From IMG/VR virus record IMGVR_UViG_3300047312_000104: a DNA stretch of 64,000 bases. The stretch is one strand, 5' to 3'. The stretch is from an uncultured virus (IMG/VR IMGVR_UViG_3300047312_000104) (Duplodnaviria > Heunggongvirae > Uroviricota > Caudoviricetes). Position 1 is the first letter of the stretch. Each line of letters opens with the position of its first letter. Shown one piece after another: positions 20,763-44,596 of the stretch. The notes under the pieces are model-generated. The model made no database searches, had not been told where the DNA came from, and saw nothing but the letters and a program-made list of their open reading frames with translations. Made by a program: the position numbers and the translations under genes.

Positions 20763-22117
20763 TCTTCCGTACCCTTGGCCTGCCTGGCCCTCAAGAGGGT
20801 ATCGATCGGGACTCCGCCTTCTGACGCTAGATCTTGCCTAACCAGTGACTGGAGTTCGGCATCACCGAGGTTCGGGTTCGTTGAGCGAGCGCGGTTAAAC
20901 GCCTGGACCACATTCTGGATCGGGTGCTTGCCAATATACTCGTCACCGAGGAGCGATTCGATCTGGCCACGTCCAGCCGTGTTGGCTATCTCTTGCCGGG
21001 TGTGAAGCGAGATCGGGGTCTGGTTCGGCTGCTTGTACTCAGGAGCTTTCTCCCCGGGAGTATTGCCGGCTACTGAACCGTAAAAATCCACTGCCCCTTG
21101 GCCAGCTGCCCCACCGGAGCCGCTCGTTCCCGTCACCGCCCCGGGGATGGCCACGAGGTCGTCTGCCAACTGGGCTGCCATCGAAGGAGTGGCCAGTTTT
21201 GATAGCTGGGTTTCGATCTCGCCATAACGCTCATCGTAATAGCGGGCCTGGACCAGGTGGTCGGCCGCGCTCTTGAGCAAGCTCTCCACGTGGAGAGTCT
21301 CACGCACCAACTGGGCTTCACGCCGGTTGATCTCAAGGACTCCAGCGAGCTTCTCGCCTTCGGCCCGCTTGTGACCATATTTGGCCAGGTCAGCCTGGTC
21401 GAAGATCACTTCTAGGGTCGAATCAGCGCAGCCCTCATGGGCGCAGAGCTGTTCGATACGGGCGAACTTAGGAGCATCGGTACGGCGGAATTCGCCAGCC
21501 AGCTTCTCGATCGATTGGACTGCAAGATCACGAGCGCGGATGAACTCGGTTCTGGCATCATCCGCCATATGCCGGATCCGGCCGATCTTCTGATGGGCAT
21601 CGCGGCCAGGTGTGAACTCCACCGAACCGTCTGAGGCAACTTTTACCGACGCAGCCTTGATCGCGCAGAACGGCTCAGCGATCCCGCAGGCCTGACTGAA
21701 CACAGAAGCGTTGTCGACCACTGGAGCATCCAAGTAAACATTCAGGTCCTGGTTGGACCAGGCCGCCGCCTCTTTCTTCTTCTCCAGATCCGACTTCCGT
21801 TCCTTCTCCACGTCCTTTTCCTTACCCGGCACCACCTGGTCGGAATCATTCAGTTGCTGATTCACCACTTCGGCGTTGGTGAGCAGGAAAGGTCCGCCCT
21901 TCTCGTCAGCCTTTGAGTTGGTCAGGTGCGATAGGGTCTTGGAGTTATTAACAGCGTGGGAGACGAGGGTGACTTCCTTGGGGTTCAACCCGCCATCGTG
22001 AGCCACCTTCGACAAGGCGGCATCCGGCTTAGCCCCTGCGTTCATAAGACCGATGACTTGTTCGGCACACTTGTAAAGGTGGTCATGACGGTCGTCAGGC
22101 ATGAGCTTTAGAGTCAT
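20759..22117 (-). CDS. Putative internal head protein (K-x-A rich)
   Basis: 452 aa; YKCA, KEAA, IKAAS, VKVAS, EKLA, LKSAA, SKLA motifs. Confidence 0.5.
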   Translation of the reverse strand: MTLKLMPDDRHDHLYKCAEQVIGLMNAGAKPDAALSKVAHDGGLNPKEVTLVSHAVNNSKTLSHLTNSKADEKGGPFLLTNAEVVNQQLNDSDQVVPGKEKDVEKERKSDLEKKKEAAAWSNQDLNVYLDAPVVDNASVFSQACGIAEPFCAIKAASVKVASDGSVEFTPGRDAHQKIGRIRHMADDARTEFIRARDLAVQSIEKLAGEFRRTDAPKFARIEQLCAHEGCADSTLEVIFDQADLAKYGHKRAEGEKLAGVLEINRREAQLVRETLHVESLLKSAADHLVQARYYDERYGEIETQLSKLATPSMAAQLADDLVAIPGAVTGTSGSGGAAGQGAVDFYGSVAGNTPGEKAPEYKQPNQTPISLHTRQEIANTAGRGQIESLLGDEYIGKHPIQNVVQAFNRARSTNPNLGDAELQSLVRQDLASEGGVPIDTLLRARQAKGTEE

Positions 22118-22919
22118 CAGTAACCCCTGTCTGGACAGTATATTCGGCCACCCGAGGCTCTCGGGCAGGTAAGGTCAAATTAGCCGGATCCCGAGGGTCT
22201 ACAACCCGCATGGGGATGTTGGAGAGGAAGCTTATGACGGCTTGCCCGTATTCCTTCTCGGCTCCCGCGCCCCCCATCACCTCACTGATCTTCTTACTGG
22301 TATCGTCCATGAAGATCCGGATGAGCTCCATCTTGGTCTCATCCCCACCCTCGGTACAGCCGACCAGCAACAGGGACTTCTTGGCCATGATGTCCCGGAT
22401 ACTGTGGGCGACCTTCTTGACGATTTCGTCGTCGTACCGTCCAGTATAGTAGGCTTCGAACACCGGAGTGCCGCCCAGCCATGCCAATCGATGCATCTGG
22501 GCAATACGGTCCCGGGTGTTCATGGTCTGGTACAGGGCCCCCTGGAAGAGGTTTGCGACCACCCAGGCCGGGCTCCCCAGACGCGGCTTCACATCAAAAA
22601 ACAGGTCATGGTAAGACCTAACATCGTCTACCTCGCATCCCACCAGGGAGGCCGTGTAGGCGTAATCGGCGTCTGAGATCAACATTCCCTCGATGAAGAG
22701 ACGCTCGGCAGGCCTGTTGGTCTTTAGTTCGTATGCGGATTCAATGGAGGGCCATTGATCGGTAGGGCGACCTTGATCGGCAGCGCGCTTGAAATGGTAT
22801 CCGGCTAACGCGATGGGGTCGGCCGTAGCCAACCGGGCCAACGCTTGCGTCTGAGTATATTCAGTCGCATCGCTGGCCAGCGCCCACCGCCAGTCAACCC
22901 GGGCGGGGGCTAGGGCCAC
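22095..22919 (-). CDS. Hypothetical protein
   Basis: 274 aa helical ORF in head operon. Confidence 0.55.
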   Translation of the reverse strand: MALAPARVDWRWALASDATEYTQTQALARLATADPIALAGYHFKRAADQGRPTDQWPSIESAYELKTNRPAERLFIEGMLISDADYAYTASLVGCEVDDVRSYHDLFFDVKPRLGSPAWVVANLFQGALYQTMNTRDRIAQMHRLAWLGGTPVFEAYYTGRYDDEIVKKVAHSIRDIMAKKSLLLVGCTEGGDETKMELIRIFMDDTSKKISEVMGGAGAEKEYGQAVISFLSNIPMRVVDPRDPANLTLPAREPRVAEYTVQTGVTDDSKAHA

Positions 22920-22920
22920 G

Positions 22921-23109
22921 TTACGCCTTAGCCGAAGCCTTGACCCGGGCTTCCACTTCGGCGCGGAACAGCTGATACTCAGCTTCGGTCAGGCCGAGGT
23001 CCTGGGCGCACTTCATCAGACCGGCTTCGAACGCACACGCGGCATCGCGCTCGTCAACCGCTGCGATCTTCTGGAGGGCTTCGTCGTGGGCTTGCTTGGT
23101 AAAGGGCAT
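22921..23109 (-). CDS. Small K-x-A-motif protein
   Basis: 62 aa; FTKQA, QKIA, GLMKCA. Confidence 0.55.
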   Translation of the reverse strand: MPFTKQAHDEALQKIAAVDERDAACAFEAGLMKCAQDLGLTEAEYQLFRAEVEARVKASAKA

Positions 23110-23185
23110 CTGGGGATCCTAAAGGGGACAGTGGGGTCTAAGGGTTAAATTAGGGGTCAAGTGGGTGGCCGGCAAGGCGATAGGT

Positions 23186-23220
23186 AAGAAAAAGACCATC
23201 CCGGGCCGAAGCCCGGGTTG
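23186..23220 (-). terminator. Intrinsic terminator
   Basis: CCCGGGC-TTCG-GCCCGGG hairpin followed by ATGGTCTTTTTCTT, immediately after the stop at 23221. Confidence 0.7.
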
Positions 23221-25440
23221 TTAGCCATCCATGTTCGCGTTAAGGCCGAGACCGTAGTGGGATGGGTCGCCCGCGAGGGTCCGACGCTTCATGAACACAA
23301 CCAGCTGGCCGAGCGATTCGAAGGTCGACTTCAGGTTGTCCTGGAACTCCATCAAGTCATCCTTGCCGTACCGTTCCTCAAAGTCCTCGTAGTGCCAGTT
23401 GAGCACGAACAAGAGACGACCCAACCGGTCCATCCCTGAGACGATCGTGGGGAGGAAACGTTCCACCAGGTCGGTGGGGTTGTGGGACTTAACCAGCGAA
23501 CCAAGAACGGATGCGTCGAACACATCCTTCTGGCCCGTCTGGGCAGCGGTCTGGACTGCCTTGGCGGTATCTTGCCCCTTGGACTTCTCTGGCCCACCCT
23601 GACCGCCCTGGTCCTCATCCGACCCGCCCCCGAAAGGAGACTGGTAGGTGTAGTACTGGCGATTGCCTTCCGGGGTAGCCTTTTCGGTCAGCGAGAGTGG
23701 GATCTGACCCTGGTGGAACTGACCCATCTCTGACCCGTTGGTGGTATCCGGCATGTCCGGGAAACCCAACAGGTGGGCAGCCTGCTTAGCCAGTGACGGG
23801 TATTGGACGTAATAAACCGTCGCATCCCTGACCGCGTCGTCTACCACCATCCGGGCATCTTCGACCGAACAAGCGTGCTTACGGATCAAGTGCGCGATGG
23901 CATTCGGGGCCGTGATCTGGTGGGTCCCATCCTGGTCCCGGATGGTGATCTCGTGGCCGTCTGACCATACCTTGATCTGGCTAGCAGTCTTATCGAGCGC
24001 CACCCGAACAGTCTGGTGGTCACCGAAGTCTGACAGGTTGAACTTCTTGTCGGGGTCATACGACCCTTCGCTGTACCCATCAGAATTCTGCTTGGTACGA
24101 TTCAGGATCAGGGCCCGGAACCTGCGGTTATTCACCACAAGTTTATTAGCCAGATACCGGATAGCCCCGGAACCAGCGTCGGTCACGACCACTTCCTTGA
24201 CGCGCTCGCTTGGCTTCTTGTAACGCCACGGAGCTGGGCCGGTCAGATAATCCATCTTGGAGTATCCGCAGTGCTGGAGCGCTGACGACCCCAAGGCATC
24301 CAACCAGTACGAACAGTGGACCCCGAGGGTCTTCAGCTCGCCTTCGCTAGTCTCGGCCGAATCAATCTCGAACCCGAGGGTGCAATCGCCCGACTGGTTA
24401 CAGAACACCACACAGTCGTTAGGGCGCACCGCGCTAGGTTCGACCGACTCGCTCTTGAGTTTGTCATGGAACTCGGCCTTCTCGTGCTGCTGGATCGTCC
24501 AAATGTGATGGCTCGGCACAATCCCGTGTTTGCCCGATTCAGGGTCATAACACAGGAAAGAATCACCAGATAGGACATTGAAGCAGAAGAGAGTCTTGAT
24601 GTCGCCGTTCGACATCAGCACTTCGTACATTCCGCCGTGACCAGGATTCTGCATCGTCTCCTTGGTGCGGGTGGTGTAGACGATTGCCTTGTCGACATCG
24701 GGCCGGTTGTCAATCACGCCAACGCCGCCACGGACCAACTGTTCCTTCTCGGAATCAGACAAGGTCTCGGCGCCCGTCTGGGCGATATTGGAAATGATCG
24801 TCACCTTGTCGGCCTTAGCGGCCAACTTCGGAAGGGTGGTCTCGAACTCGGTCACGTCGTAGAAGCGCTGGACCGCCTCAGCTAGTTTGGGATGACGCTT
24901 GAGGTCGTCGAGGAAACCGCGGGCTACCTTGGGACCAAAGAGCGGCAGGAGATCGCTGAGGGACTCAGTTGGGTCCGAATCACGAGGGGCCGCCATGGTG
25001 CCGCAAAGATCGCTAGCATCCTTGGTAAACCCGAAGTTGCTTGAACCACCGGACGGGATGGTCCGAAGTCTGGTGTAGTTGGGTACTTGAGTACCCCTGT
25101 CCTGCTTCGACCGTGTATCCGTCTCACCAATTTGGTTTGGCCGGCGGTTGATCAACAGGTCGATCCACTCATCATCCAAAGGTGTAAAGAGGTCGGACTC
25201 TTCCGAGTAGATCGAATCGAGGCCTTTGATCTGACCATTGAGGAAGAAGCAGGGGACGTAGTAGAAGGACTCACCAATCTCACAACCGAAAATACCTACG
25301 CAGCGGGACCCGTCCTCGTCATTATCGATGATCTGGAAGCCTACCAAGTACTCCAGCAAAGCCGGGGCAGCGTCTCTCAGCCTGGAGTTGGCCAAATCCG
25401 AAAACGTCTTTTCCAGCGAAGTCTCGTCAGCGTCGGCCAC
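23221..25440 (-). CDS. Large multidomain head-associated protein (K-x-A motifs between domains)
   Basis: 739 aa; TKDAS, PKLAA, DKTAS, AKQAA motifs. Confidence 0.55.
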   Translation of the reverse strand: MADADETSLEKTFSDLANSRLRDAAPALLEYLVGFQIIDNDEDGSRCVGIFGCEIGESFYYVPCFFLNGQIKGLDSIYSEESDLFTPLDDEWIDLLINRRPNQIGETDTRSKQDRGTQVPNYTRLRTIPSGGSSNFGFTKDASDLCGTMAAPRDSDPTESLSDLLPLFGPKVARGFLDDLKRHPKLAEAVQRFYDVTEFETTLPKLAAKADKVTIISNIAQTGAETLSDSEKEQLVRGGVGVIDNRPDVDKAIVYTTRTKETMQNPGHGGMYEVLMSNGDIKTLFCFNVLSGDSFLCYDPESGKHGIVPSHHIWTIQQHEKAEFHDKLKSESVEPSAVRPNDCVVFCNQSGDCTLGFEIDSAETSEGELKTLGVHCSYWLDALGSSALQHCGYSKMDYLTGPAPWRYKKPSERVKEVVVTDAGSGAIRYLANKLVVNNRRFRALILNRTKQNSDGYSEGSYDPDKKFNLSDFGDHQTVRVALDKTASQIKVWSDGHEITIRDQDGTHQITAPNAIAHLIRKHACSVEDARMVVDDAVRDATVYYVQYPSLAKQAAHLLGFPDMPDTTNGSEMGQFHQGQIPLSLTEKATPEGNRQYYTYQSPFGGGSDEDQGGQGGPEKSKGQDTAKAVQTAAQTGQKDVFDASVLGSLVKSHNPTDLVERFLPTIVSGMDRLGRLLFVLNWHYEDFEERYGKDDLMEFQDNLKSTFESLGQLVVFMKRRTLAGDPSHYGLGLNANMDG

Positions 25441-25510
25441 TGGGCTACATCCTTAAGGGGGTCACGGTCAAATTTAGAGCCTCGGGGCCCCTTGTACAGC
25501 CAGGTAGGGC

Positions 25511-27397
25511 TTAGTCGGGATCCTGTGAACCATATGTTCCAGTGGTCCCCAGGCCCTTCCCGAACCCCTTCCCGCGGGCGAGCGCTGGGACGAAGCTGGT
25601 ACTGTTGGGATCACTGGTGGCACCCCTGGAGAGCGAATGCTGGAATGCCGAGCTCGAATAGAAGCCGGCCAAGGGTACTTGCCAGTCAGGATCCTGGTGG
25701 GTGGCCAGCAGCCCACGCTGGTGTACTGGCTCGAACCCGGGAGGTTCGGCGTGCGAGTACACATCAGCGATTCCGTGCTTATCGAGATGCTTTGCCACTT
25801 TCTTGGTTATCTTCGTCCCGACCCCGTAGTGGAGCCCTGGCTCTTCCATATACCGCCCAATCGAGTGTCTGACCGGCTGGAGGGTAGCGTCCTCGCGAGG
25901 CTTATACCCGTGGGTCAGCTGTCCATACCCAACGATATCGTCAGGAACGTGCTCCCCGATCCCGTTCGGGTCCTTCACCTGGGTCCAATTGAGGAGTCCT
26001 GCCACCACCGCTTCGAGGTTACGCCGGTGATGCGCTATTCCTGAGTTGTTTAGAGCTTCCCCGAGGAGTCCAAGGTAGACACGTCGCGCTTCCCCGATCC
26101 CGCGATGTTGAACGAGATCAGACGGGTGCGGGATCCCGTTGGTGAGGTCATCCCCTTGGTCAACTTGGTCACCAGGCTTCACGATGGGATCTAACCCGGC
26201 GTGAACGTAGTGCTTCTTTGACCCGATCGTGATATGGTGACCACCCTGGGGGGCTCTCTCGACACTCTTCACAACCCCCTGTTCGTCTGCGAGCGGTCCA
26301 GCCTCGGGGAAACTCTCTGGGGCTTCGATCAGCCGATTGATGTAATCGAATCCACTCCGGTCCGGCCCTTTGGCCTTAGCCATCAGGCTGTTGTGTTTCG
26401 ACGACAGCGATCCCTGGGAGAGCTTTTCACTAAGGGCCTGAGCGGCCGGGATCCCGATATTGTCGCCAATTCTCGAAAGATCGAAGCGATCTCTTCGGCC
26501 AGCCGCGAGTCTTGAAATCCCGCCGTCAGGAGTGGGCTCTGTGAGGGGCGAATGGATGACGATCTCATCGGTACCTTTCTCCCTAATTTGGCGCAGCATA
26601 TCCGGAGTGATGGTCTGGCCCGCTTTGAACGGGCCGGCGTCGGCTGCCAGCACCGCCCCGACATTGTCCTGATCCTTAGGGTCCACAGGGAGCCCCACGG
26701 GGAGCCGCGTAGGGTCCGGGGTATCCTTCGTGACAACAATCCGATGAGTGGCGTTGGCGAGCTTTTTCCCCATGAAACCAGCTTCACCGGTACTCAACTT
26801 CGTGTTGATGTCACCCTTGCGCTGTCCATATAACCCGGCCCAATACTCAACAGGATCCATCCCTTCGGCATAGCTATGGAAGAGTGGTACCGGCAGGACC
26901 TTACCGGTGTGGTCGGCTGTCAGGAGATCAGCACCCCGGAGAGAATTGTAATCGGACTTCTTACCGCGCGACCCGCTGATCAGCTGAAGGTAATAGGGGT
27001 TATTTTCCTTCTTGGCTTCCTCATACATCGCGTCTTGTAGTTTCGGACCAAGCGGCAATAGAGTATCGATGATCTGCTGATCCTTCTGATCCTGCGGGAT
27101 CTTGTCGTCCTCTATGATTTGTTGAACTCTCTTCCGCGCCTCACCAATCACTTGTTCCTTGGCTGGTGATTTAGCGAGCGCCGAAAGAGATACGGATGAA
27201 CCGGACGAATAGGCGGTTGAGCGCCCGATGTCGTTTAGCTTCTGGAGCGTTTCTTTGTATTGGTCCGGATGCTTCTCAGCCAACTGCTGGAGCAGACTGT
27301 GCATCCCCTGCTTATCGAAACGAAACCCCTCGTCGCGCCGGAGATCTTCCGGGAGAGCTTGGTTGATCAGCATGGTCCCGACGGTCGTGGTCCCCAC
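25511..27397 (-). CDS. rpoC: DNA-directed RNA polymerase beta' C-terminal part
   Basis: TTVG, SGSRG, SYAEG...YWAGLYGQRKGDINTKLSTGEAGFMGKKL (bridge helix), IGIPAAQALSEKLSQGSLSSKH (trigger loop), IAHHRRNLE, matching RpoC regions. Confidence 0.9.
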   Translation of the reverse strand: MGTTTVGTMLINQALPEDLRRDEGFRFDKQGMHSLLQQLAEKHPDQYKETLQKLNDIGRSTAYSSGSSVSLSALAKSPAKEQVIGEARKRVQQIIEDDKIPQDQKDQQIIDTLLPLGPKLQDAMYEEAKKENNPYYLQLISGSRGKKSDYNSLRGADLLTADHTGKVLPVPLFHSYAEGMDPVEYWAGLYGQRKGDINTKLSTGEAGFMGKKLANATHRIVVTKDTPDPTRLPVGLPVDPKDQDNVGAVLAADAGPFKAGQTITPDMLRQIREKGTDEIVIHSPLTEPTPDGGISRLAAGRRDRFDLSRIGDNIGIPAAQALSEKLSQGSLSSKHNSLMAKAKGPDRSGFDYINRLIEAPESFPEAGPLADEQGVVKSVERAPQGGHHITIGSKKHYVHAGLDPIVKPGDQVDQGDDLTNGIPHPSDLVQHRGIGEARRVYLGLLGEALNNSGIAHHRRNLEAVVAGLLNWTQVKDPNGIGEHVPDDIVGYGQLTHGYKPREDATLQPVRHSIGRYMEEPGLHYGVGTKITKKVAKHLDKHGIADVYSHAEPPGFEPVHQRGLLATHQDPDWQVPLAGFYSSSAFQHSLSRGATSDPNSTSFVPALARGKGFGKGLGTTGTYGSQDPD

Positions 27398-27400
27398 AGA

Positions 27401-27622
27401 TCACCTATGGTCCGCTATTTCGACCTTTTGAGCCGTAAGCCCGAGATGCAAATCTTGAACGACTTGTCCAAAATCATCGTGGGTAGCATCACTGTGGACC
27501 ACTATCCCGCCGTCCTGGTAAGTAACGGCCAACGGTACCCCGAGGTCATCACAGACCACCACCTGGGTACAGGGGAGAGTAAGGACCTTGCCAGTCGTCT
27601 TGTGGACGAACCGGATAAGCAT
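27401..27622 (-). CDS. Small hypothetical protein between RNAP genes
   Basis: 73 aa, coupled start/stop with neighbours. Confidence 0.5.
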   Translation of the reverse strand: MLIRFVHKTTGKVLTLPCTQVVVCDDLGVPLAVTYQDGGIVVHSDATHDDFGQVVQDLHLGLTAQKVEIADHR

Positions 27623-28230
27623 CAGGTTCCCAACAGGTCAGCCGCGTCCGACCCCATCTTGATCGGGCCGCCGGCCTGGACGGCAGACATGTCGCCAGGC
27701 AAACCAGTAACGGGGCCTGGAGCCTGGGAAGGGTCAGGGGCGCCAGCCCCTGCTCCCCCGGGTGCGCCTGCGCCACCCTTGGGCTTCTTTGACTTACCGT
27801 AGCTGTCCAGGGCCTTGTCGACGATCGCCATCACGGTACTGGCCTGGCCAGGGTTGACGGCTTCGGGCGGGGTACCGTCGAGCGCGTTAGGGGCAGGGGG
27901 AGGCTGGGTCGGATCCATTGGTGCCCCAGGAGGAGCTCCAGGAGGGGCCCCCATGGCACTTGGGTCGGGTGGCATTCCGCCCTGGGACGGGTCGGCCCCA
28001 GGGGGCATCTGGGAAGGATCCCCAGGAGGGGCTCCGGCAGCCGAAGGATCAACCGGCGGGGCGCCTGCGGTAGGATCGCTAGGCGGTCCACCAGGGACCC
28101 CAGCGGCTCCAGGCGGCATACCTGGCGGGAGTCCTTGACCACCAGTCGGGTCAGCGGGCGGTTGAGCGTCCTGCCCCTGGGGCTCCGGTGGGACGAAGGC
28201 GCGCTTGAGCAAACGTTCGAAATAGGTCAT
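27622..28230 (-). CDS. Pro/Gly-rich low-complexity protein
   Basis: LLKRAF N-terminus then PPxDP/GAPPG repeats. Confidence 0.55.
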   Translation of the reverse strand: MTYFERLLKRAFVPPEPQGQDAQPPADPTGGQGLPPGMPPGAAGVPGGPPSDPTAGAPPVDPSAAGAPPGDPSQMPPGADPSQGGMPPDPSAMGAPPGAPPGAPMDPTQPPPAPNALDGTPPEAVNPGQASTVMAIVDKALDSYGKSKKPKGGAGAPGGAGAGAPDPSQAPGPVTGLPGDMSAVQAGGPIKMGSDAADLLGT

Positions 28231-28265
28231 AAGGGTACCCTAACTTGGCCGGTAAAGCCAACAAC

Positions 28266-31200
28266 TCACTTGTCGGAGATGATTTGGACGGGATCGGACA
28301 CGCCAATTTCACCGCGGGTGTAGGCTGCCATGGCATCGCTAGCCGTAGCAAACACTCGGGTTGGCTTCTTGTGGTCCTTCTGGGATGCCGTGTACAAGCC
28401 GCCCAGGAACTCATTCGAAGGGGCGAGATGCACATCGAACGAATTAGCCGCCAGCAGATTCTTAGACGGGAACAGCTTGGCTTTTACCTCGTTCACGGCT
28501 TCCTTTGAAACCGGAACGTGTACCCCGATGGCGTCTCCATCGAAGTCAGCCCCGAGCCCCTTGGTAACGGCCTGTGATATCGAGATATCGGATTGCCCAC
28601 GGTTGATGTGGGCAATTCCACCCACGTAGTTGTATCGGTGGAGTTCCGGGGCTCGGTTGTACACAACCGGACGCTCGGACATCTCCGTCTCAAGAGCATG
28701 TTCGGCTTGCTTCGACTTATTCTTAACAGCCTTAACGGCATCAGCCGCGTGCATCCCACTACGGACAAGGCGAGCTATCACGAAAGGTCTGAACTGTTTC
28801 CACGCCATCTCTTCCGGGATCCCGATCGAATCCATATCCATGGCCGGGTCAACGGTGATCACAGAGCGGCCGATGGTGTCGACGGTGTTGCCGAGAACCT
28901 TGCGCTGGAAACGGCTGAACTTAGGCGAGTCCTTCACCCCAATGGCAAACCTAAGCATGCCACGAATTCCCTGTTCAGCGTGCTTGGGATCTACTGGGTC
29001 AGCCACGCCAGCCACTGCCTTGGCTGAGTTGTAGAGATTCAGGTACGCGTCCCCCGCGTTACCGAATTCCTTCTGATGTTCAGACCAGTTTTTAGAAGCT
29101 TCAAGGACATCGTGGTACAGGTAATTCGCATCATGGACCATGTCGACCCCACGGGCGCGCAGGACTGGTCTATACTTGGGAGGCAACAGAGGAAGTTTAG
29201 AAATCATCAACTCGTCTGGTTTAAGACCCTGGGTCTGGAGTCCGGTCAAATACCCAAGCTTCTTTATCGCAATATCGCGCCCAGCCCCGCTTAACCCCTT
29301 CACTTCCTGCTTGGTCTGCTCAATTGCCTTCCCGACGTCTATCCCTTTGAGGGCATGCTCGATCGCTTCAGGGCCAGTCTTGTCGCCAATCTTCTCTTGG
29401 CCAGCCAAGATAGATTCAAACTTCTTATTCGTAAGACCAAGTATCCGCACGATAGGGTCTTGCGCCAACGGGTTAGGGATCTTCACCGGAAGCTTTATTT
29501 TGCTCCAACGGGTTCCGTCTGCCCCGCCCGTCTTTCCAAGATCGAACAATCCATCCGGGACAGGCTTCATCGAATTGAAGTCAAACGTACCAGAATTGCC
29601 AATCTCGTGCTGGGCCATGGCGTCCACGTCACGATCGGTCATGAACGACAACTGGGTCTTGCCCTGCCCCTTATTTCGTATGTTTACTCCGGCTGCTCTG
29701 AGGAGATTCAAGAAATGCTTATTGGCGAAAGACTCATTTGGCGCCACCGGAGTCCCGCCGGTCTTGAGCGACCGCCAGTAATCGTCATTCCGCTGACCCC
29801 GGACCATCTTTGCGTCCTTGAGGAACTCGGTGGCTCCGCTGGAAAGCAACGATGTCAAACCAAGCATCCCAATCCGCTTCGATCCCTCTTTGCCACCCCT
29901 GGCCGGAGACTCGTCGACCGAATAGCCTCCGGTATCGCGGGCGCTCAACTTACCTTCTGCGGTATGGTGCAGCTTGGCCAGGTACTGGTGACCCGTAAAG
30001 ACTCCCGGGATCTTGCGCCCGTCCCTAGGATCCGTGAGGGTCTCGGTTTCCTTAACCCCGTGCTTACGAGCTTCAGCTAAAGCAAAGTCGGCTAACCCGC
30101 CCTTGTCTTCGAATGATTTCATCAAATACGGCTTGCCTGTTTTGGCCGCCACTTTGCCGAGCAGAGTCGAGGCCAATAGTCCCGGGTTAGACCGGGTGAT
30201 GACACCTGTGGGCCCTAACAGGACCTCAAGTGGCTTCCCTTCCTCGTCATGCGGCATCTGATCGTCCGGGACAATCGAGCTCACTACGCCCTTGTTCCCG
30301 TACGCTGAGGACATCTTGCTTCCGACCGTCATGGGCTCATAAGATTTAACCGCTACCTTGATGCCGGACCTGGTCCTGGCCACATCAGTCACGACCCCTG
30401 GCTGGGGGTGCTCCCAGACTTGGGTGGCGTCTGTGTGGGCTGACTTGTCCGACTTCATTAGAGCGCCAACGGCACGACCCTGCCGCTTCCCTATCGCGAC
30501 AATCAGTGGGTCCCCTGGGTTGATGGTCTGTCCAACCCTTACTACCCCATCGTCATCGAGCTTCTTAAATTGCTCAGGGGTATACTTATCCCCATAGATG
30601 GCCCTGTAGTCGGCCGTCTTTGTCGAGTGAATTTCCGGCCCTAATTCGAGCTTCTGTTTGTACTGATGCTCTGACGTCAACCGGTTAGCCGCGGATGAGC
30701 TGATGACAATCGCGTCCTCATAGGTGGCCCCGTGTCCACTCAAGTACCCAACCCGCATGTTGAGACCCGGGGCTGCCCGGCCGTGCTCGTCAGTAAAGTT
30801 AGACCTGGCCAACAATTGCCCAGGCTGGACCGGATCACCGATCTTAACCGCCGGAGTATTGTGGAGTGTGGTCTTACGAGCCAACGGGAAATTGTTGTAG
30901 AGCTGGTACTCTTTTTTCTCTCCGCCAGGATGCAAGACCGTGATGGAGTCAGGCGATACCCCGATCACTTGACCGGGCTTATCGGCATGGACTGCCCCGG
31001 CATGCTTCCCCATCTCATTGTAGAACGACTTACCTTCGCGGTCGACCGACTGGACCAGCGGGGCCTCGGGATTCTTGAGCGGCATCGACTGGGTGATCAT
31101 CCGACTACCCATGGCCAGCCGCTTGCTCTTCATCCCCTCTGGCATCGGAATCATGTTCGAGACGCGGGAGAACATGTGGGTCGAATCGGGGAGTTCGTAG

Positions 31201-32681
31201 TCAACTAGTCCGCGGTTCACATACCTGATCTGGTCCCCCACCATCGCCCGAATCTTCTTCTTCGTCTTGTCGGCCATCTCACCGGGGAACGCCACCACCT
31301 TGCCAGCAATCTGATGACCACTCATCGGCGCGTGTTGGCCGGTCCGGGTATTCCGGAGAGTGGTGTACAGCTGGTTGTCTGACCCTTTAAGGGCCGCGTC
31401 CGTGACCCTCATGTCTAACCCGATGGCCGCGCTTTCAGGCGATCTTGACGGGTCAATCAAACCGAAGTGACTCGGCTGCACCCCACGGGCCTCCTTGGAG
31501 ACCGATTGGGCCGAGCTTATTCCGCCTTCACCCATTCTCGTGATACCCTGACGAAGATCGTGGGTTTCATAAGGGTTTACTTCTTCAGATGCATGAGCTA
31601 GTCCAGAACCGCGGAATATCGCGTGAATATTGGGGGTTAGGAGGCCCGACTGGAGTGACCCTAGGTTGCCCTCTCGTGTGGCTTTCCAGAGAAGCTTCTG
31701 AGCAGCTCCTGTTTGGTCACGCTTGAGGCGTTCACGAAAATGGTCTTCAGCCGAATGGAGTGACTGGAACGCTTGGGCGTCACGGTTATCCCCTGGCTCT
31801 TCGTCTTTCGCCACCCTGAGGAGCTTCTGGGTCACTCTGGTCAGCACATCCGGGGATAGGGTCTCGTGACGCTTGCCGAGTGTCAGCTCAGTGGTGTCTG
31901 GATCAACCTTGGTCCGAGCCAGGATTCCCTGGAGGGTTTGCGGTAGATGCTCATCAGGGGCTTCGCGTTCGTGTTTACGCCCCAACTTCTCCACCACCTT
32001 TTTTAGGTCCTGGTTGTCATGACCGGTTACACCGCGCCAATTCGCCTTGAAGAGTTCATCCCCCCAGGCCTGCTTCAGCGCGTCATCCCCAACCCCGAGG
32101 GCTTTGAGGAGCGGGTATAGGCGGGTGGTCGATTGACCGATCTGAACCTTAAACAAACCACTCTCTGGTTCGAGGTTTACCCTGAATCCGCGGCCTGATC
32201 CCGGCTGGGCATTGACGTGGGCCTCGACCCCGCCATTTTGTTGTTTTCTGACGTACACGCCCGGACGCAGCCGAGCCTGGTTACGGACTACCCAAGAAGT
32301 CCCATTATGGATGAATACCCCGCGGGACGTCAGGTGAGGAACGTGGGCTAGGGTTGTGTGGCGTTCATCCAACACTTGATTGGTCGCATTATCGACCAGT
32401 CGGACCTTGCCCTGGATCGGACGCTGGAGCCGTCCTCCATTGAGGATCGCCTCTTTCTCATCCTTCTTGGTCGGCTCTTTATGATTCGGCGCGTATTGGA
32501 CGTCCGAGACTTCTAGCCGGTGGGTAGCGTTCTTGAGTGGAAAACGCTCCTGGACGCCCTTGAGGGCGTGGTCATAGATATCTTTACGGTGTTGATCGAT
32601 GTCGTCGAAACGACGAAACGTTACCGCTGGTTTTGGTGCAGGGACATCCGGTCCCTGCATGTCATCGAGCAGATCCGCCAT
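28266..32681 (-). CDS. rpoB: RNA polymerase beta subunit fused to beta' N-terminal/catalytic half
   Basis: RpoB motifs (ARGVQPSHFGLIDPSRSPE, GATYEDAIVIS, GSKMSSAYGNKGVVS, KLHHTAEGKLSAR) followed in-frame by RpoC motifs (LPLLPPKYRP, RFQRKVLG..VD..GRSVI, NRAPELHR, GADFDGD). Confidence 0.93.
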   Translation of the reverse strand: MADLLDDMQGPDVPAPKPAVTFRRFDDIDQHRKDIYDHALKGVQERFPLKNATHRLEVSDVQYAPNHKEPTKKDEKEAILNGGRLQRPIQGKVRLVDNATNQVLDERHTTLAHVPHLTSRGVFIHNGTSWVVRNQARLRPGVYVRKQQNGGVEAHVNAQPGSGRGFRVNLEPESGLFKVQIGQSTTRLYPLLKALGVGDDALKQAWGDELFKANWRGVTGHDNQDLKKVVEKLGRKHEREAPDEHLPQTLQGILARTKVDPDTTELTLGKRHETLSPDVLTRVTQKLLRVAKDEEPGDNRDAQAFQSLHSAEDHFRERLKRDQTGAAQKLLWKATREGNLGSLQSGLLTPNIHAIFRGSGLAHASEEVNPYETHDLRQGITRMGEGGISSAQSVSKEARGVQPSHFGLIDPSRSPESAAIGLDMRVTDAALKGSDNQLYTTLRNTRTGQHAPMSGHQIAGKVVAFPGEMADKTKKKIRAMVGDQIRYVNRGLVDYELPDSTHMFSRVSNMIPMPEGMKSKRLAMGSRMITQSMPLKNPEAPLVQSVDREGKSFYNEMGKHAGAVHADKPGQVIGVSPDSITVLHPGGEKKEYQLYNNFPLARKTTLHNTPAVKIGDPVQPGQLLARSNFTDEHGRAAPGLNMRVGYLSGHGATYEDAIVISSSAANRLTSEHQYKQKLELGPEIHSTKTADYRAIYGDKYTPEQFKKLDDDGVVRVGQTINPGDPLIVAIGKRQGRAVGALMKSDKSAHTDATQVWEHPQPGVVTDVARTRSGIKVAVKSYEPMTVGSKMSSAYGNKGVVSSIVPDDQMPHDEEGKPLEVLLGPTGVITRSNPGLLASTLLGKVAAKTGKPYLMKSFEDKGGLADFALAEARKHGVKETETLTDPRDGRKIPGVFTGHQYLAKLHHTAEGKLSARDTGGYSVDESPARGGKEGSKRIGMLGLTSLLSSGATEFLKDAKMVRGQRNDDYWRSLKTGGTPVAPNESFANKHFLNLLRAAGVNIRNKGQGKTQLSFMTDRDVDAMAQHEIGNSGTFDFNSMKPVPDGLFDLGKTGGADGTRWSKIKLPVKIPNPLAQDPIVRILGLTNKKFESILAGQEKIGDKTGPEAIEHALKGIDVGKAIEQTKQEVKGLSGAGRDIAIKKLGYLTGLQTQGLKPDELMISKLPLLPPKYRPVLRARGVDMVHDANYLYHDVLEASKNWSEHQKEFGNAGDAYLNLYNSAKAVAGVADPVDPKHAEQGIRGMLRFAIGVKDSPKFSRFQRKVLGNTVDTIGRSVITVDPAMDMDSIGIPEEMAWKQFRPFVIARLVRSGMHAADAVKAVKNKSKQAEHALETEMSERPVVYNRAPELHRYNYVGGIAHINRGQSDISISQAVTKGLGADFDGDAIGVHVPVSKEAVNEVKAKLFPSKNLLAANSFDVHLAPSNEFLGGLYTASQKDHKKPTRVFATASDAMAAYTRGEIGVSDPVQIISDK

Positions 32682-33513
32682 TGAGCCGTCCCTTGAGACG
32701 CGCCCCTAGGGCGGCGAGTTTCGGTTCACCCGGGTGAGGCTGCGGGTGTTTGTGCTCGGTCACGACCGGTTCCAACTCGGCTTGGGGGAACTGTTCTTTC
32801 TGGTGCTCATAGAATCCGTGGATTGCATTCGAAGCCTGATCGTACTTATTCTTGCGAGATTCGTTGTAGGCAGACATGGCCGCCAATGATCCAAAGATCC
32901 CCAAAGGAATACCGAGGCCAGTTGCGCCCAGGACCGAGTCAGCGCCGCGGAGGGCAGCCCCGCCTGCGGCTGAGGCGAAATTAGGAACAGTCCAATCGAA
33001 CGCGGCGGACTTATCGAACCACAAATCCTCTGCGGCCTTCATGGTAGCGTGCAAGGGGGCGTCCGGACCCATCGGGTTATCTTCGAGGAGCCGCTGGACC
33101 CGATTACGGGTCTGTTCCAGCTCGCCCTTGACCCGATCACGACGACGATTCTCAAGGTATGAGTCGAGTAGCTTCCAGCCACCGTATGCCCCTGCGGTGC
33201 CGACGGCCCCTGTGGCGACGTCTCCTACGAATCCGGCCAGCTTCTTACGGATCTGTATCCCGTTGGCCTTCATCTGTTCGGCCTCTTCTGGAGACACTTC
33301 GACCGGAACCTTGATGGCCGCCGTAGGGGTCGTACCGAAATCGGTGTCGTCCTCTTTACCACGGTACAGATCGATCAAATGCCGGATCCCGCGGGCCCCT
33401 ACCCCTGCCCCTAACCCTAGGGCCCCGGCCCCCACAACATCCGACGGGGTTATCCAGTTGTAAGCTTGTTTGGCCTGCATGGGGTCCACTTTAGAGCCCC
33501 GGGGGCTCCACAC
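32662..33513 (-). CDS. Putative internal/ejection protein with Gly-rich hydrophobic segments
   Basis: Several K-x-A motifs, each followed by a GxxxG-type hydrophobic helix. Confidence 0.5.
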   Translation of the reverse strand: MWSPRGSKVDPMQAKQAYNWITPSDVVGAGALGLGAGVGARGIRHLIDLYRGKEDDTDFGTTPTAAIKVPVEVSPEEAEQMKANGIQIRKKLAGFVGDVATGAVGTAGAYGGWKLLDSYLENRRRDRVKGELEQTRNRVQRLLEDNPMGPDAPLHATMKAAEDLWFDKSAAFDWTVPNFASAAGGAALRGADSVLGATGLGIPLGIFGSLAAMSAYNESRKNKYDQASNAIHGFYEHQKEQFPQAELEPVVTEHKHPQPHPGEPKLAALGARLKGRLNGGSAR

Positions 33514-33520
33514 AACGGCG

Positions 33521-33838
33521 TCAGGTCGTTGGGGCTATGAATTCCCAGGCGCCCCAGCGTAGAAATGCCAACATCTTGCCATCTTGAATGGTTGGCTCGG
33601 ACTTCTCGCAGAACACCGCCGACTTGTCAGCTATGGCCTGCCATACGTCCTGATAGGCCTTTAGGTCTACCCCGTCCAACAGGTTGAATACCTGACACTT
33701 AGCCACCAATCGCTTCCGTACCTGCTTGTTTGCCGGCAGGCTTGGGTCAATCAGCGGGATCTCCCCTGTGATGTCAATAAACCGGTCAGCTTGGAACCGA
33801 GGGGTATTCATCGCCTCGGGGATTTTAACAGCAGCCAT
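33521..33838 (-). CDS. Hypothetical protein
   Basis: 105 aa ORF in operon. Confidence 0.5.
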   Translation of the reverse strand: MAAVKIPEAMNTPRFQADRFIDITGEIPLIDPSLPANKQVRKRLVAKCQVFNLLDGVDLKAYQDVWQAIADKSAVFCEKSEPTIQDGKMLAFLRWGAWEFIAPTT

Positions 33839-33843
33839 GCCTG

Positions 33844-34527
33844 TTATCGTGCCACACGATTCCGGTTGTTCAATACCTTACGGATCATGGCTTGGCGCCG
33901 CTGGCGGATCAGCTGCTGCTCCGAGTCTTCGAGCTGGCGACGCTCCAGCCGCATCCTGGCTACATCCACGTCGGCCGGACCCTCGTTGAGCATCTGCCCA
34001 CCAATCGCCCCCGCGTTGGTGGCGGCCTGGTGACCAAGCTCGCTCAACCCCTTGATGGGGGCCGTGAGGTACTCGGGGGTCACCGGGATAACCACGTCAC
34101 CGAACCCGCCATGCTTGGCAAAGCGATCCAGGAGTCCGAGATCAACCGCGGCCTTTATGAAGCCTAGCCGCCAAGCTTCGCGACGTTCTTGTTCGGTCTG
34201 TTGTGCAGAATTCATCTTCAGTATCCCTGTATTGAAAAGTGTCCCTAGCCCCATCCCCATGTTCTGAAACGTCCCAAGGGTCCCCTGGGATACCCCGAGG
34301 AGTTTTCCCATGATAGTCGCGGCCCCGTACCCAAGCCCAGCCCCCACGGCCCCCCTGGTGATATCCCCCGGGGTGATCCACGGGGCGGTCTCGGGAGCCG
34401 CCGCGGCAGCGTTCTGGATACTCGTCAGGGCCCTGGCCTTATCCCACATGTTCAACGTGGGGTCCTTCAGGACGTCTTGTTCGGCCCTGGAGATGTTGAT
34501 CAGGTTGGAGGCATCCTGAAGGGTCAT
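33844..34527 (-). CDS. Putative virion protein with hydrophobic Gly-rich segment
   Basis: GAVGAGLGYGAATIMG; GFIKAA motif. Confidence 0.5.
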   Translation of the reverse strand: MTLQDASNLINISRAEQDVLKDPTLNMWDKARALTSIQNAAAAAPETAPWITPGDITRGAVGAGLGYGAATIMGKLLGVSQGTLGTFQNMGMGLGTLFNTGILKMNSAQQTEQERREAWRLGFIKAAVDLGLLDRFAKHGGFGDVVIPVTPEYLTAPIKGLSELGHQAATNAGAIGGQMLNEGPADVDVARMRLERRQLEDSEQQLIRQRRQAMIRKVLNNRNRVAR

Positions 34528-35417
34528 GGGGCACCCACGGGTGGCGTCGCCGGCTGGGCCGGCATCTGCTGGGCACCCTGGAGGGCTGCCTGGTCCGGCA
34601 CAATGTTCCTGACCGCGTCAACCCCGGCCCTACGACCCATCTGGGGAAGATTCACGAGTCCGCTCGCCTGAACTGCCTGAAGATCTTTCCACTGTGATCC
34701 GTACTGCTGGAGGAACTGCTGATCGGGCAATTTGCCGCCAAGGTGGTCCCTGACTGCCGAAAGAAACTTAGGGTCCTTGATGGCGTTGTAGCGACCCCAC
34801 AGGTTTGCGGCACCACCGGCGGCGGCCAGGACACCGGCGATCCGCCCCATGTTGCCACGACTCATCAGCGCCACCATGATCCCCATTGGGAGCATCATCA
34901 GGGACGGGTTGGACTTCATGTAGTTCCACCACCCGCCCTCTTTACCGCCCCAATCTTTCTTGGCAGCTGCCGCGGCATCGGTGCCGAACTGCTGGCCCGC
35001 ATTTCCAGCCCGCCCAGCTATCTCTTTGGACAATTCCTCGGGAGACTTGCTGTTATTGAACCAGCCCTTAACCGACTGAGGGATCCAACCAGGACCACTT
35101 GCGTTGGCGAGATTACGAGACGCTTCGAAACGCTGCGCCGGTGTGACGTCTTTGCCTCCGAGGGTCTCGTTGATCTGCCCAACGGCCCCCACGTCACCAC
35201 TGGCAGCCTGGTTGTACACCTGCGGGGAGATAGCATGAGCCGCGTTAGGATCCGGGACTGCTGGCTTAGGAGGCACTGGTGCCGCTTGGGCAACCGGAAC
35301 CGGAGCTGGGGTGACGGGTTTGACCGGCGGAGTCGCCACCGGGACCGGTGCTACCTTGTCCCCGAACTCAACCCCGGCTGATTTGCTCAGCCGCTTAATC
35401 TTTGGATTAAATTTCAT
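34524..35417 (-). CDS. Putative virion protein with membrane hairpin
   Basis: SKSAG N-terminal motif; LMMLPMGIMVALM...IAGVLAAAGG. Confidence 0.5.
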   Translation of the reverse strand: MKFNPKIKRLSKSAGVEFGDKVAPVPVATPPVKPVTPAPVPVAQAAPVPPKPAVPDPNAAHAISPQVYNQAASGDVGAVGQINETLGGKDVTPAQRFEASRNLANASGPGWIPQSVKGWFNNSKSPEELSKEIAGRAGNAGQQFGTDAAAAAKKDWGGKEGGWWNYMKSNPSLMMLPMGIMVALMSRGNMGRIAGVLAAAGGAANLWGRYNAIKDPKFLSAVRDHLGGKLPDQQFLQQYGSQWKDLQAVQASGLVNLPQMGRRAGVDAVRNIVPDQAALQGAQQMPAQPATPPVGAP

Positions 35418-37753
35418 GGGTGGGGGACTATCGGCTTAGGGACCTGGGCGATCGGCTGGGATGACGGCGGGGTTGGTTTAACCGCCTGTTGGGCTGGCGG
35501 GGTTGCGGTGGCACCGGGACCTGGCGGGATGACCCCTTGGGCGTACTGGATTGTGTTGACCGCCGGGGCATTCCGTTGAGCCGTCCCACCGGATCCAGTC
35601 ATCTCACCGGGCTGATTACCCCTGAGGATCTGCTGGGCGTTGTTACGTCCTACCCGATGATACAGGGCCGCATTACGGGCTGCCAGCTGGTACTGTTCTG
35701 GGGTGAGGGATAGTTGGCCTGATTCTGGGTTCCTCTTGGCTCCAGATACCTCTTCCATAAGGGCTACTTGAGGGGGCGACAAAGCCCTACGTTCCATGAG
35801 GGCCTGGCGGGCCTGAGAGTAGCGTCCCAGCCAATCGGTTCCAACCTGCTCGTTGGTGCCACGGTTAAAGTCCAACTTCCCGGCCGATTCCGCATGCTCT
35901 GCACCGAGGCGAGCCAAGGTACCAGCCGTCGAAGGATCCAAATGGTCAAGCCGAGGATCTGCCCCGATGGTATTCAGGGTTTGATCATACCCCTGTTGGC
36001 CCTGGTTGGTCGCATACATCTCGCGCTTGGCCGATTGGACAGCACGTCCGGCAGGGGTATTGGGCAGGACACGCCCGTACGAAGCACCAAACTGGCGGCG
36101 TGCGTCGTCGATATTGCCATTCAGGAGCGCACCAGTCCCGGCCTTGGTGGCATCCCATAGTTTGCCTCCGGCCCCGCTTGTCTCGTTAGCCAGGCTTTGA
36201 TTCCCAACCTCTTGTTCGTTGGCAACCGCGTTAGGATCCTCTGAGTCACCCCAGTTGTAAGCCTGACGTCCGAGGTCAGCCATCCCTTTGGCTCCGCTGA
36301 TCAGCGTTGCCCCCATGGCCGCATTACCGCCGAAGTTACGGGCCTTGCTGAGCGCGCTAGTGGCACCTGTGACTCCAGGGGTCAGACCACGACGGGTAGC
36401 GTCCCACAAAGCAGCGGCTGGGCGCGATGCCCCAACGGCTTGACCGGTTAATGACGGAACCGCCAACCTGACCGCCCCTGTGCCACCCAACCCTTGTGCG
36501 GTTGCCGATAGAGCCGGGACAACTGCTTCCTTGGCGGCTTCCAACGACTGACCCCTGGGGGCAATCGCTGCGGCTAGCGCAGGACCCATGAGCGGTGCCA
36601 CTGGAGCGTACTTGATCGGGAGTGGGAGTTTTACCCCGCTCTTGCCCAACTGGGACATCTGATCCCAAAGCCTGGATCCGGCCAGCTGACTCCACGTATT
36701 GCCAGCGCCCCCAAGGGTATTGGTGCGCGAAGTCCCGCCAACATTCTCACGAGCCAACTGATTCTGGTCTTGCCACTTGCCAGTCATCCCGGCCAGCTGA
36801 CCTTTTATCGCCTCAGCATCTGCTGGACGATTTTCGGCCACCGCTTGATTGTATTGAGCCTGGAGGCGTCCGCGCTCGTCTAACCCGGTGGCCATCGACT
36901 CTAGGCCGGGGCTCGACGCTGCCGACGGCAGCCGCACTAGCCTTCCATTCTTATCAACTGGCTGTCTACGCATGGCCGCTTGGACAAGCTGCCCCACTGG
37001 AGACAACACATCGGCAAGACCACCCGAGTGTACCTGGGCCACCGGCTCCAGCATTCCAGTGGCACCTTGGATCGAGTTACGCTCGTTCTCACCCTTGTTG
37101 GCTAGAAATCGACGCTGGGCCGCATCAGCTGCGTAGGTTCCGGCATTAACCAGATCCGGATTAGTAACGTCCTGCGGGACCCCTTGGTCATCCGTTACGG
37201 TCTGGAGTCCAGACTGACGTAACCGCGGAGCCTCGATCCCTTGGGCAGCCAGCTGAGCCTTCTGGTCGTCGGGCAACTGCGCGAATGCCTGAGCTTTGCG
37301 GTCATAGTCGGCCGCCTGGGCATCTTGAATCTTAGTAGGGTCAACCAGTTGGGAATTAGTGGCGGCAGACCGACGAAAGCTCGACTTATCAGTACTCAGA
37401 TTCCTGTACCCGAACTTGTGGGCTTCAAATTCAGCCGCTACTTCTTGTTCGGTCGGGGCTCTCCCGAGGGTGCCAGCTAGATGCTGACGAGCAGCTTCTT
37501 TTGCTTCCTCGTCTCTAGCCTGCATCAACCAATAATCGTTCTCTGCCCCAGTAGGATCAGCAGCCAACTTTTCCGAAGCCCCGCAATAGCTGGACATCCA
37601 CGCCAACTTCTTCTTACGTTCGTCCCCGAACGGAATCTTGGCCCCGGCCTTAGTCTCAGTTTCACCGGCCAGGTTAATGGTTGGATGATGAGACTTTGAG
37701 CCCCGCAGATGGAACTGCCGCGGGCCGGTCATCTTGATCGGCTTGTGGGGCAC
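35414..37753 (-). CDS. Large Ala/Gly/Gln-rich putative ejection protein
   Basis: 779 aa; KKLAW and EKLAA near N-terminus; hydrophobic central segments. Confidence 0.45.
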   Translation of the reverse strand: MPHKPIKMTGPRQFHLRGSKSHHPTINLAGETETKAGAKIPFGDERKKKLAWMSSYCGASEKLAADPTGAENDYWLMQARDEEAKEAARQHLAGTLGRAPTEQEVAAEFEAHKFGYRNLSTDKSSFRRSAATNSQLVDPTKIQDAQAADYDRKAQAFAQLPDDQKAQLAAQGIEAPRLRQSGLQTVTDDQGVPQDVTNPDLVNAGTYAADAAQRRFLANKGENERNSIQGATGMLEPVAQVHSGGLADVLSPVGQLVQAAMRRQPVDKNGRLVRLPSAASSPGLESMATGLDERGRLQAQYNQAVAENRPADAEAIKGQLAGMTGKWQDQNQLARENVGGTSRTNTLGGAGNTWSQLAGSRLWDQMSQLGKSGVKLPLPIKYAPVAPLMGPALAAAIAPRGQSLEAAKEAVVPALSATAQGLGGTGAVRLAVPSLTGQAVGASRPAAALWDATRRGLTPGVTGATSALSKARNFGGNAAMGATLISGAKGMADLGRQAYNWGDSEDPNAVANEQEVGNQSLANETSGAGGKLWDATKAGTGALLNGNIDDARRQFGASYGRVLPNTPAGRAVQSAKREMYATNQGQQGYDQTLNTIGADPRLDHLDPSTAGTLARLGAEHAESAGKLDFNRGTNEQVGTDWLGRYSQARQALMERRALSPPQVALMEEVSGAKRNPESGQLSLTPEQYQLAARNAALYHRVGRNNAQQILRGNQPGEMTGSGGTAQRNAPAVNTIQYAQGVIPPGPGATATPPAQQAVKPTPPSSQPIAQVPKPIVPHP

Positions 37754-37754
37754 G

Positions 37755-38213: not shown

Positions 38214-38234
38214 AGGGTCCCCTAGGGGGCCAGA

Positions 38235-40097: not shown

Positions 40098-40140
40098 GAA
40101 AATCAGCTTACCTTGGGTTTAGGGGCCAGGTAGCCCACAA

Positions 40141-40797: not shown

Positions 40798-40837
40798 ACC
40801 GGTCTCCGATATCCACCGTATCTTGATTCACAGGCAG

Positions 40838-44594: not shown

Positions 44595-44596
44595 GG

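Follow-up and report, generated by a model that had tools for sequence, protein, structure and literature searches.

The 64,000-nucleotide stretch of the uncultured caudovirus record IMGVR_UViG_3300047312_000104 analysed here (the window; 64 kb of a 159-kb contig) encodes a bacterial-type RNA polymerase (RNAP) in which the two large subunits are fused to each other and divided again at a different point. A gene of 1471 amino acids (aa) with an ATG start (28266–32681, minus strand) corresponds to the beta subunit followed by the N-terminal half of beta-prime, and a second gene of 628 aa with a GTG start (25511–27397, minus strand) to the C-terminal half of beta-prime, with the bridge helix and the trigger loop. 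The source stretch belongs to a phage, with minus-strand genes nearly throughout, a G+C content of ~58% and matches to phage hallmark proteins. Judging from their sequences, the two proteins very probably form a functional two-chain RNAP, and we consider it probable that they are the only catalytic chains of a phage-encoded, bacterial-type enzyme that is packaged in the virion. The window enzyme is not a singular object but an ordinary representative of a large and conserved family, in which the second half of beta-prime is typically a separate gene of ~600–650 aa, as it is here; sequence comparisons indicate that this layout is common to a very large group of uncultured phages.

Domain organization of the two chains

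Profile searches recovered, in order along the 1471-aa protein, the Pfam domains Rpb2_3 (residues 365–422, E = 5.7e-5), Rpb2_6 (605–922, 2.6e-44), Rpb1_1 (1144–1204, 3e-6, under the Pfam cut-off) and Rpb1_2 (1264–1400, 9.4e-20). In comparisons with solved structures, residues ~84–1022 align to bacterial beta (best E 7e-58) and residues ~1075–1468 to beta-prime, ending at position 537–561 depending on the species. The anatomy was mapped with a profile of 83 family members (1435–1535 aa) aligned to the RpoB and RpoC sequences of Salmonella; the source of these two sequences was a phage-collection record with a wrong label. This alignment places a complete beta at residues ~1–1006 and the N-terminal half of beta-prime at residues ~1007–1471, the chain stopping ~85 residues past the metal-binding motif GADFDGD (residues 1377–1383; 28533–28553, minus strand). 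RpoB L1339 (of 1342) corresponds to residue 1003 and RpoC G36 to residue 1025, which puts the junction at 29607–29675 (minus strand); since beta-prime starts straight after the end of beta, the two are joined without a linker, with a loss of ~15–35 N-terminal residues of beta-prime. An AlphaFold2 model of residues 272–1471 (51-row alignment; mean predicted local distance difference test, pLDDT, 80.6; predicted template modelling score, pTM, 0.69) shows an ordered junction made up of strands and a helix (pLDDT 80–93), and its top matches in the PDB are bacterial beta chains (E ~1e-42).

The 628-aa protein matches Rpb1_5 (residues 179–343, E = 3.9e-9). It starts at position 554–579 of solved beta-prime chains (around residue 573 of RpoC) and extends to ~1164, with an unbroken alignment to positions 661–1164 of one of them. 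Because the fused chain ends at position 537–561 of the same chains, the two open reading frames (ORFs) between them cover beta and beta-prime, cleanly cut and without overlapping. The second chain contains the bridge helix (residues 182–218), the trigger-loop histidine H335 and a C-terminal conserved region.

We take the catalytic positions of the cellular enzyme to be R678, E813/D814, K1065, K1073, R1106 and H1237 of beta, and R425, D460/D462/D464 and the trigger-loop H936 of beta-prime. In the profile alignment all are kept, in the beta part as R521, E655/D656 (aligned to E813/D814), K789 and K797 (the active-site lysines K1065 and K1073; 30291–30317, minus strand), R830 and H906, in the N-terminal part of beta-prime as R1343 and D1379/D1381/D1383, and in the second chain as H335 (= H936). 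The catalytic residues are invariant over 51 aligned family members, as are D1379, D1381, G1382 and D1383, and GADFDGD is the family consensus. The rifampicin pocket is altered (Q513H, D516E, H526L and R529G), so that the enzyme would be expected to be insensitive to the drug.

The two chains total 2099 aa, compared with 2749 aa for RpoB plus RpoC of Salmonella. The segments absent by this comparison are RpoB 222–419 and 941–1049, which we take to be lineage-specific insertions of the enterobacterial beta, RpoC 61–159 and the large trigger-loop insertion. There is no cysteine in the 2099 residues of the two chains; elsewhere in the window, minus-strand ORFs of 100 aa or more contain 133 cysteines in 16,234 residues (0.82%), which gives a probability of ~3e-8 for finding none in 2099. 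Cysteines are likewise absent from 76 of the 83 family members without large insertions.

Matches to bacterial chains in Pfam and the PDB (1e-44 to 1e-58) are much stronger than those to the PHROG profiles of phiKZ-type enzymes (1e-13 to 1e-26); identity to bacterial chains is only ~27–29%. A preliminary description of the window, made from the letters alone, had read RpoB and then RpoC motifs through GADFDGD in the 1471-aa ORF, with both double-psi barrels therefore in one chain, a junction at ~29.6–29.7 kb, and the bridge helix and trigger loop in a separate gene; it had also called the enzyme compact and closer to its bacterial counterparts than the phiKZ type. These observations are confirmed, as are the minus-strand coordinates of the four ORFs concerned. 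That this layout is the norm across a very large family of phages, that relatives encode sigma-70-type factors elsewhere in their genomes and that the ORFs between the two polymerase genes are lineage-specific goes beyond what that description could know.

Integrity and conservation of the junction

A frameshift or a stop codon lost in the assembly could mimic a gene fusion. Nothing was found in favour of such an error; the depth of the sequencing runs is low (~4–5). Logan contigs from four soil or rhizosphere runs covering 25400–32800 agree with the window at 99% identity or more, with no indel, joint or stop and a single substitution; a contig of run X1 (29302–31430) spans the junction with no difference, although X1 is possibly the source sample. 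The stop or frameshift near the junction that the preliminary description had named as the observation to look for is thus missing from the contigs of all four runs. The relatives speak against an error as well. The same domain order was found with Pfam in 5 of 5 relatives, and PF00562 and PF00623 are both present in the best 120 hits (120/120) of a word-indexed search with precomputed Pfam assignments, which gave 574 hits at E ≤ 1e-10 among 7999 scored. An exhaustive search with residues 600–1471 was evaluated for its 150 top-scoring cluster representatives (50% identity; each above 690 bits), and one profile domain spans the junction in every one of them. Together with the confidently folded junction of the model, these results led us to reject, as far as sequence data can tell, an assembly artefact, whose probability we regard as negligible.

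A host rpoB/rpoC pair that was captured recently, or that is decaying without function, would also show the motif-level similarity to bacterial enzymes seen here. Such an origin is hard to reconcile with the low identity to bacterial chains, with catalytic residues that are invariant in 51 members, and with a family of at least 150 clusters at 50% identity. It also conflicts with the phylogeny: in a quick tree of the N-terminal half of beta-prime (20 rows, including four bacterial sequences and no phiKZ-type rows), the whole family forms one clade, with a Shimodaira–Hasegawa-like approximate likelihood-ratio test (SH-aLRT) value of 99, apart from the four bacterial beta-primes and those of the cultured Rhizobium phage RHph_TM30 and Vibrio phage Va2. 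This tree is too small to place the family among cellular lineages; the evidence as a whole makes a captured or decaying host gene pair highly improbable.

Relatives and variants

Among 50,697 phage records searched with tblastn, Salmonella phage Arash and Vibrio phages D69, D148 and D181 cover at least 80% of the fused chain at ~31% identity. These phages have the same two-chain layout, with chains of 1525/1527 and 606/609 aa (gp206 and gp216 in Arash; OQ632216.1; PMC10585845); the Arash/D69 group shares with the window enzyme 31% identity over 97–99% of the fused chain, the position after the portal gene, the gp218-like neighbour, a single polymerase set and the absence of alpha. The Arash genes run from the portal gp204 through gp205 to the fused gp206 (1525 aa), then, ten genes on, to gp216 (606 aa), the helicase gp217 and gp218, and further on to the capsid gp226. 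The window is syntenic with this arrangement for the portal, the fused gene, the second chain, the gp218-like gene, the capsid and several tail or baseplate genes. Two differences are that the polymerase genes are ten genes apart in Arash and separated here by ORFs of 202 and 73 aa, and that Arash and D69 keep the four cysteines of zinc site II in chain 2 and one or two cysteines in chain 1, whereas the window enzyme has none. In the window, Arash, D69 and the related records L003, L004, L005 and L025 alike, the polymerase genes belong to the head module, where they come after the portal gene, and a gp218-like gene lies downstream of the gene for chain 2.

Short hits that might have represented an ancestor with an unfused N-terminal half of beta-prime led to two records, L027 (1976–11119) and L028 (1–6464), and this candidate was discarded, as the two proved to be further-split forms. 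Their protein 1 covers profile positions 471/481–1093, which corresponds to the C-terminal half of beta and the first ~90 residues of beta-prime, and the next protein covers 1094–1461; the N-terminal half of beta was not recognised in these records by the family profile. Since protein 1 spans the joint, the covalent link between beta and beta-prime is kept even here. Both records are nested among the fused forms in the 20-row tree (SH-aLRT 87–89). A protein with a GNAT acetyltransferase domain is encoded just upstream in L027 and L028.

Insertions larger than 100 aa are frequent in the family: at least one is present in 125 of the 150 fused representatives, and the window copy has none. They lie at profile positions ~410 (38 cases), 790 (18, at the catalytic lysine), 830 (13), 930 (10), 1250 (15) and 1380 (40, inside DFDGD), and LAGLIDADG or intein Pfam families are recorded for many of them. 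The second chain of L025 (10756–14079) is 1107 aa long; its residues 10–605 match the C-terminal half of beta-prime and are followed by ~500 extra C-terminal residues of unassigned nature.

Comparison with other divided or fused polymerases

The fused and re-split layout is apparently a distinct and undescribed variant among phage multisubunit RNAPs. Full-text literature searches, and the available parts of PMC7824862, PMC7598289, PMC7481178, PMC13282480 and PMC12619734, contained no description of a fusion of beta with the N-terminal half of beta-prime in phages, although the supplementary datasets on mReC phages might include fused members. The accessible text of the Arash report names the proteins 'beta' and 'beta-prime' without describing a fusion (PMC10585845).

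The phiKZ/AR9-type enzymes (Chimalliviridae and relatives) resemble the window enzyme in being phage homologues of beta and beta-prime without alpha or omega, one set of which is virion-borne. As far as the published accounts available go, both beta and beta-prime are split in these enzymes and no sigma is used (PMC7598289, PMC7824862, PMC13282480). Their beta-prime is divided just after the double-psi barrel, the N-terminal PHROG profiles ending ~30–35 residues from the C-terminus of the window chain (compare the available part of PMC7598289). In contrast to their two sets of 4–5 polypeptides with a split beta, beta is whole and fused in the window, and its relatives have one set.

The mReC phages (Weinheimer and Aylward, 2020; PMC7481178), and also RHph_TM30 and Va2, likewise encode compact, cellular-like enzymes, and the best PHROG profiles for the fused protein, phrog_24349 and phrog_25354, span ~1200 positions each, a size class like that of mReC proteins. 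According to the available text, mReC enzymes are defined by separate beta and beta-prime of at least 800 aa, an NADxDGD motif and a gp23-type capsid, PF07068 (PMC7481178). The window differs in each respect, with its fused and re-split layout, GADFDGD and a capsid without any Pfam match. In RHph_TM30 and Va2, beta-prime is unsplit (1127 and 1192 aa), encoded separately and equipped with both zinc sites; the family profile scores these beta-primes at 177–182 bits, compared with 219–238 bits for bacterial ones.

Cyanobacteria and plastids also divide beta-prime after the catalytic barrel, into the products of rpoC1 (gamma) and rpoC2. The phage chain ends at about residue 552–562 of the 625 residues of gamma, and residue 52 of chain 2 aligns to residue 34 of the cyanobacterial beta-prime, so the cut in the window lies ~45–65 residues earlier than the cyanobacterial one. 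RpoB and RpoC also occur as natural fusions in Helicobacter and Wolbachia, with beta linked covalently through its C-terminal end to the start of beta-prime; these proteins are full-length (~2900 aa), are not re-split and still work with alpha, omega and sigma.

Alpha, sigma and a possible mode of action

A single Rpb2_6 match was found in each of five related records, two of which are complete genomes. Alpha (PF01000) was detected in none of the five at E ≤ 1, including the complete genomes of Arash and D69, although the same search recovered it in all 14 control genomes. Sigma-70 region 2 exceeds the Pfam cut-offs in Arash (in two places) and in D69, and a relative with 66% identity, G002, encodes a 288-aa protein with sigma-70 regions 3 and 4 over the cut-offs, of which a further record, G001, has a weaker orthologue. 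With the sigma-like proteins of these four as phmmer queries, nothing was found at E ≤ 10 among the six-frame ORFs of at least 40 aa in the window. The sigma gene of G002 lies ~50 kb beyond the polymerase, and a sigma factor would accordingly be expected outside the window here. RpoC 160–550 aligns to the fused chain without large gaps (385 versus 391 residues), as does RpoB 420–940, and the clamp helices and the beta flap, which are the sigma-docking elements, thus appear to be retained. Since these aligned regions are kept and relatives encode sigma-70-type proteins, the enzyme may use a phage sigma; we rate sigma dependence of the window enzyme as an even chance.

The features described above suggest the following scheme. 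Chain 1 would provide the whole of beta continuing covalently into the clamp and the double-psi-barrel half of beta-prime, and chain 2 the remainder of beta-prime, including the bridge helix and the trigger loop. We infer that the covalent joint between the two subunits stands in for the alpha-dimer assembly platform, which is absent from the related phages. Both zinc sites, all cysteines and the lineage-specific insertions have been shed, leaving a core of 2099 aa. Promoters would be recognised through a phage sigma encoded outside the window. The enzyme would be made late, packed in the capsid and delivered with the DNA, and would start early transcription without the host polymerase; because relatives carry a single polymerase set, the same enzyme probably serves later phases as well.

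Evidence for and against packaging in the virion

From Arash and D69 to the window phage, the polymerase genes keep their place between portal and capsid, and the preliminary description had already taken their location as a hint of a virion-packaged RNAP; this interpretation gains indirect support from the particles of Arash. In the published spectral counts for Arash particles, both chains are among the most-detected proteins: gp206 has the most spectra (3516) and gp216 has 1210, while the counts are 1149 for gp218, 1148 for gp217 and 467 for the sigma-like gp10 (PMC10585845), and simple arithmetic on these counts puts gp206 above the portal per residue. Packaging is nevertheless likely rather than firm, because the same particle preparation also listed many enzymes, and the balance of our analysis tips slightly towards an enzyme that would travel in the virion and enter the cell together with the DNA.

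Several points weigh against a functional and packaged two-chain enzyme. None of the 79 window ORFs scanned (50 larger, 25 small and the four of the polymerase stretch) matches an alpha, omega or sigma Pfam family, as the preliminary description had also noted. The cellular N458 is replaced by G throughout the family, and the trigger-loop R933 by S (S332), a family- or clade-wide change. Both zinc sites of beta-prime are gone: the N-terminal zinc region (RpoC 61–159) is replaced by ~33 residues, that site being missing in every fused member mapped, and the residues of zinc site II (C814, C888, C895 and C898) are P227, E287, S295 and A298 of the 628-aa chain. No RNA run is among the sequencing runs listed for the polymerase stretch. 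Finally, the particle proteome of Arash lists 116 of 272 proteins; ribonucleotide reductases, RNA ligases and a primase are among them (PMC10585845), and its authors allow for carry-over of abundant cytoplasmic proteins (PMC10585845).

The last points would fit an enzyme that is a functional two-chain RNAP and stays in the cell: the host polymerase would transcribe its genes, it would then run middle and late transcription with a phage sigma, and the location of its genes in the head module would simply reflect their history. Many cytoplasmic enzymes are among the 116 proteins listed for the Arash preparation (PMC10585845), sigma-dependent late polymerases need not be injected, and no propeptide or targeting signal was identified in the window chains. 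This reading has to contend with the portal–capsid location, conserved from Vibrio and Salmonella phages to a soil phage, with the abundance of gp206 in the published Arash counts, per residue above the portal, and with the disappearance of every cysteine and both zinc sites from the window clade, which it does not explain. Zinc site II is kept in Arash, D69 and L025 and replaced in the window and L003–L005; since it is still present in the former, the cysteine-free state must have been derived within the window clade. We regard an unpackaged enzyme as unlikely, though it deserves to be taken seriously.

In its full form, the packaged two-chain enzyme would characterise a large undescribed phage lineage in which a core free of cysteine, zinc and alpha is carried in many copies, passes the tail with the DNA and, aided by sigma, carries out the entire programme of phage transcription independently of the host polymerase; we put this forward tentatively, at somewhat less than an even chance. 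If it is true, virion-borne transcription would have been solved independently for a third time, in addition to N4 and phiKZ, and the enzyme would be a naturally occurring minimal RNAP of the bacterial type whose alpha platform is replaced by the covalent link between beta and beta-prime. To transcription biochemists, the family would offer a two-chain enzyme of ~2100 residues that lacks alpha, omega, zinc and cysteine and may yet be sigma-dependent, in which the replacement of the platform by the joint can be tested directly. It is abundant in soil, water and gut metagenomes, has cultured members (Arash and Vibrio phage D69), and its richness in inteins at catalytic motifs makes it useful for intein biology.

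Genomic context of the polymerase genes

The two polymerase genes are separated by a 202-aa ORF rich in Pro, Gly and Ala, of low complexity (27622–28230, minus strand), which has no Pfam or PHROG match, and by a 73-aa ORF (27401–27622, minus strand). The small ORFs at this place differ among relatives. Among five relatives compared, homologues of both were found in L004 only (43% identity for the 73-aa protein), and as this is the closest relative (66% identity), the two lineage-specific ORFs, whose roles are unassigned, are not core subunits.

The portal gene lies upstream of the polymerase genes (38235–40097, minus strand; E = 1.9e-52 to Arash gp204 and 7.9e-5 to phrog_64), and the gene of the major capsid protein downstream (15003–15941, minus strand; 1.8e-28 to Arash gp226). 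The preliminary description had placed the polymerase between portal and prohead protease; the portal and the head module stand firmly, whereas the protease call (18340–19695) depends on weak PHROG matches (phrog_18299, 2.9e-5). Directly 3′ of the capsid gene, a G+C-rich hairpin followed by a T run (14915–15002) looks like a terminator behind a highly expressed gene.

The 739-aa protein encoded downstream of the second chain (23221–25440, minus strand) is the homologue of Arash gp218, annotated as a 'structural protein', and is conserved at this place. The protein had no usable match in the Atlas; its AlphaFold2 model (pLDDT 67.5, pTM 0.41) had no match in the PDB at E ≤ 0.001, and the sole match in BFVD is an uncharacterised phage protein. 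A consensus scan found a strong terminator-like hairpin of seven G–C pairs with a T run directly after this gene (23200–23217, minus strand), which is likely to mark the end of a transcription unit. This hairpin closes a block that begins at the portal gene and includes the polymerase genes, an arrangement consistent with co-transcription of polymerase and head genes. A scan of 21500–41000 for sigma-70-type promoters gave 5 sites compared with 6.1 expected, hence no enrichment, and no shared promoter motif was obvious by eye in the intergenic sequences, for which no motif-finding computation was made.

Six ORFs lie between the portal and the polymerase (32662–38213, minus strand; 283, 105, 227, 297, 779 and 152 aa). 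They have no family matches and are cysteine-poor (3 cysteines in 1843 residues), and they may encode co-packaged internal proteins. Further upstream, the region 41625–46479 (minus strand) encodes an adenylylsulfate kinase (PF01583, 1.5e-40), a sulfotransferase (PF13469, 1.8e-15; phrog_27463) and a 989-aa protein with NUDIX and HAD hydrolase domains, a possible sulfation module. Two tail-fibre-like proteins are encoded at 46964–52302 (minus strand), one of 793 aa with YadA-head repeats and one of 407 aa with a DUF2793 domain, and a 599-aa protein at 54221–56020 (minus strand) combines a match to phrog_1745 ('DNA transfer protein', 1.5e-93) with an N-terminal Fis-type helix-turn-helix. Other genes encode a dihydrofolate reductase (52344–52853), a deoxynucleoside monophosphate kinase (57957–58673, plus strand) and a peptide deformylase (59589–60104). 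Contigs nearly identical to the window are present in runs X1 and X2, one a soil and one a rhizosphere metagenome from different studies, which suggests a soil-borne host.

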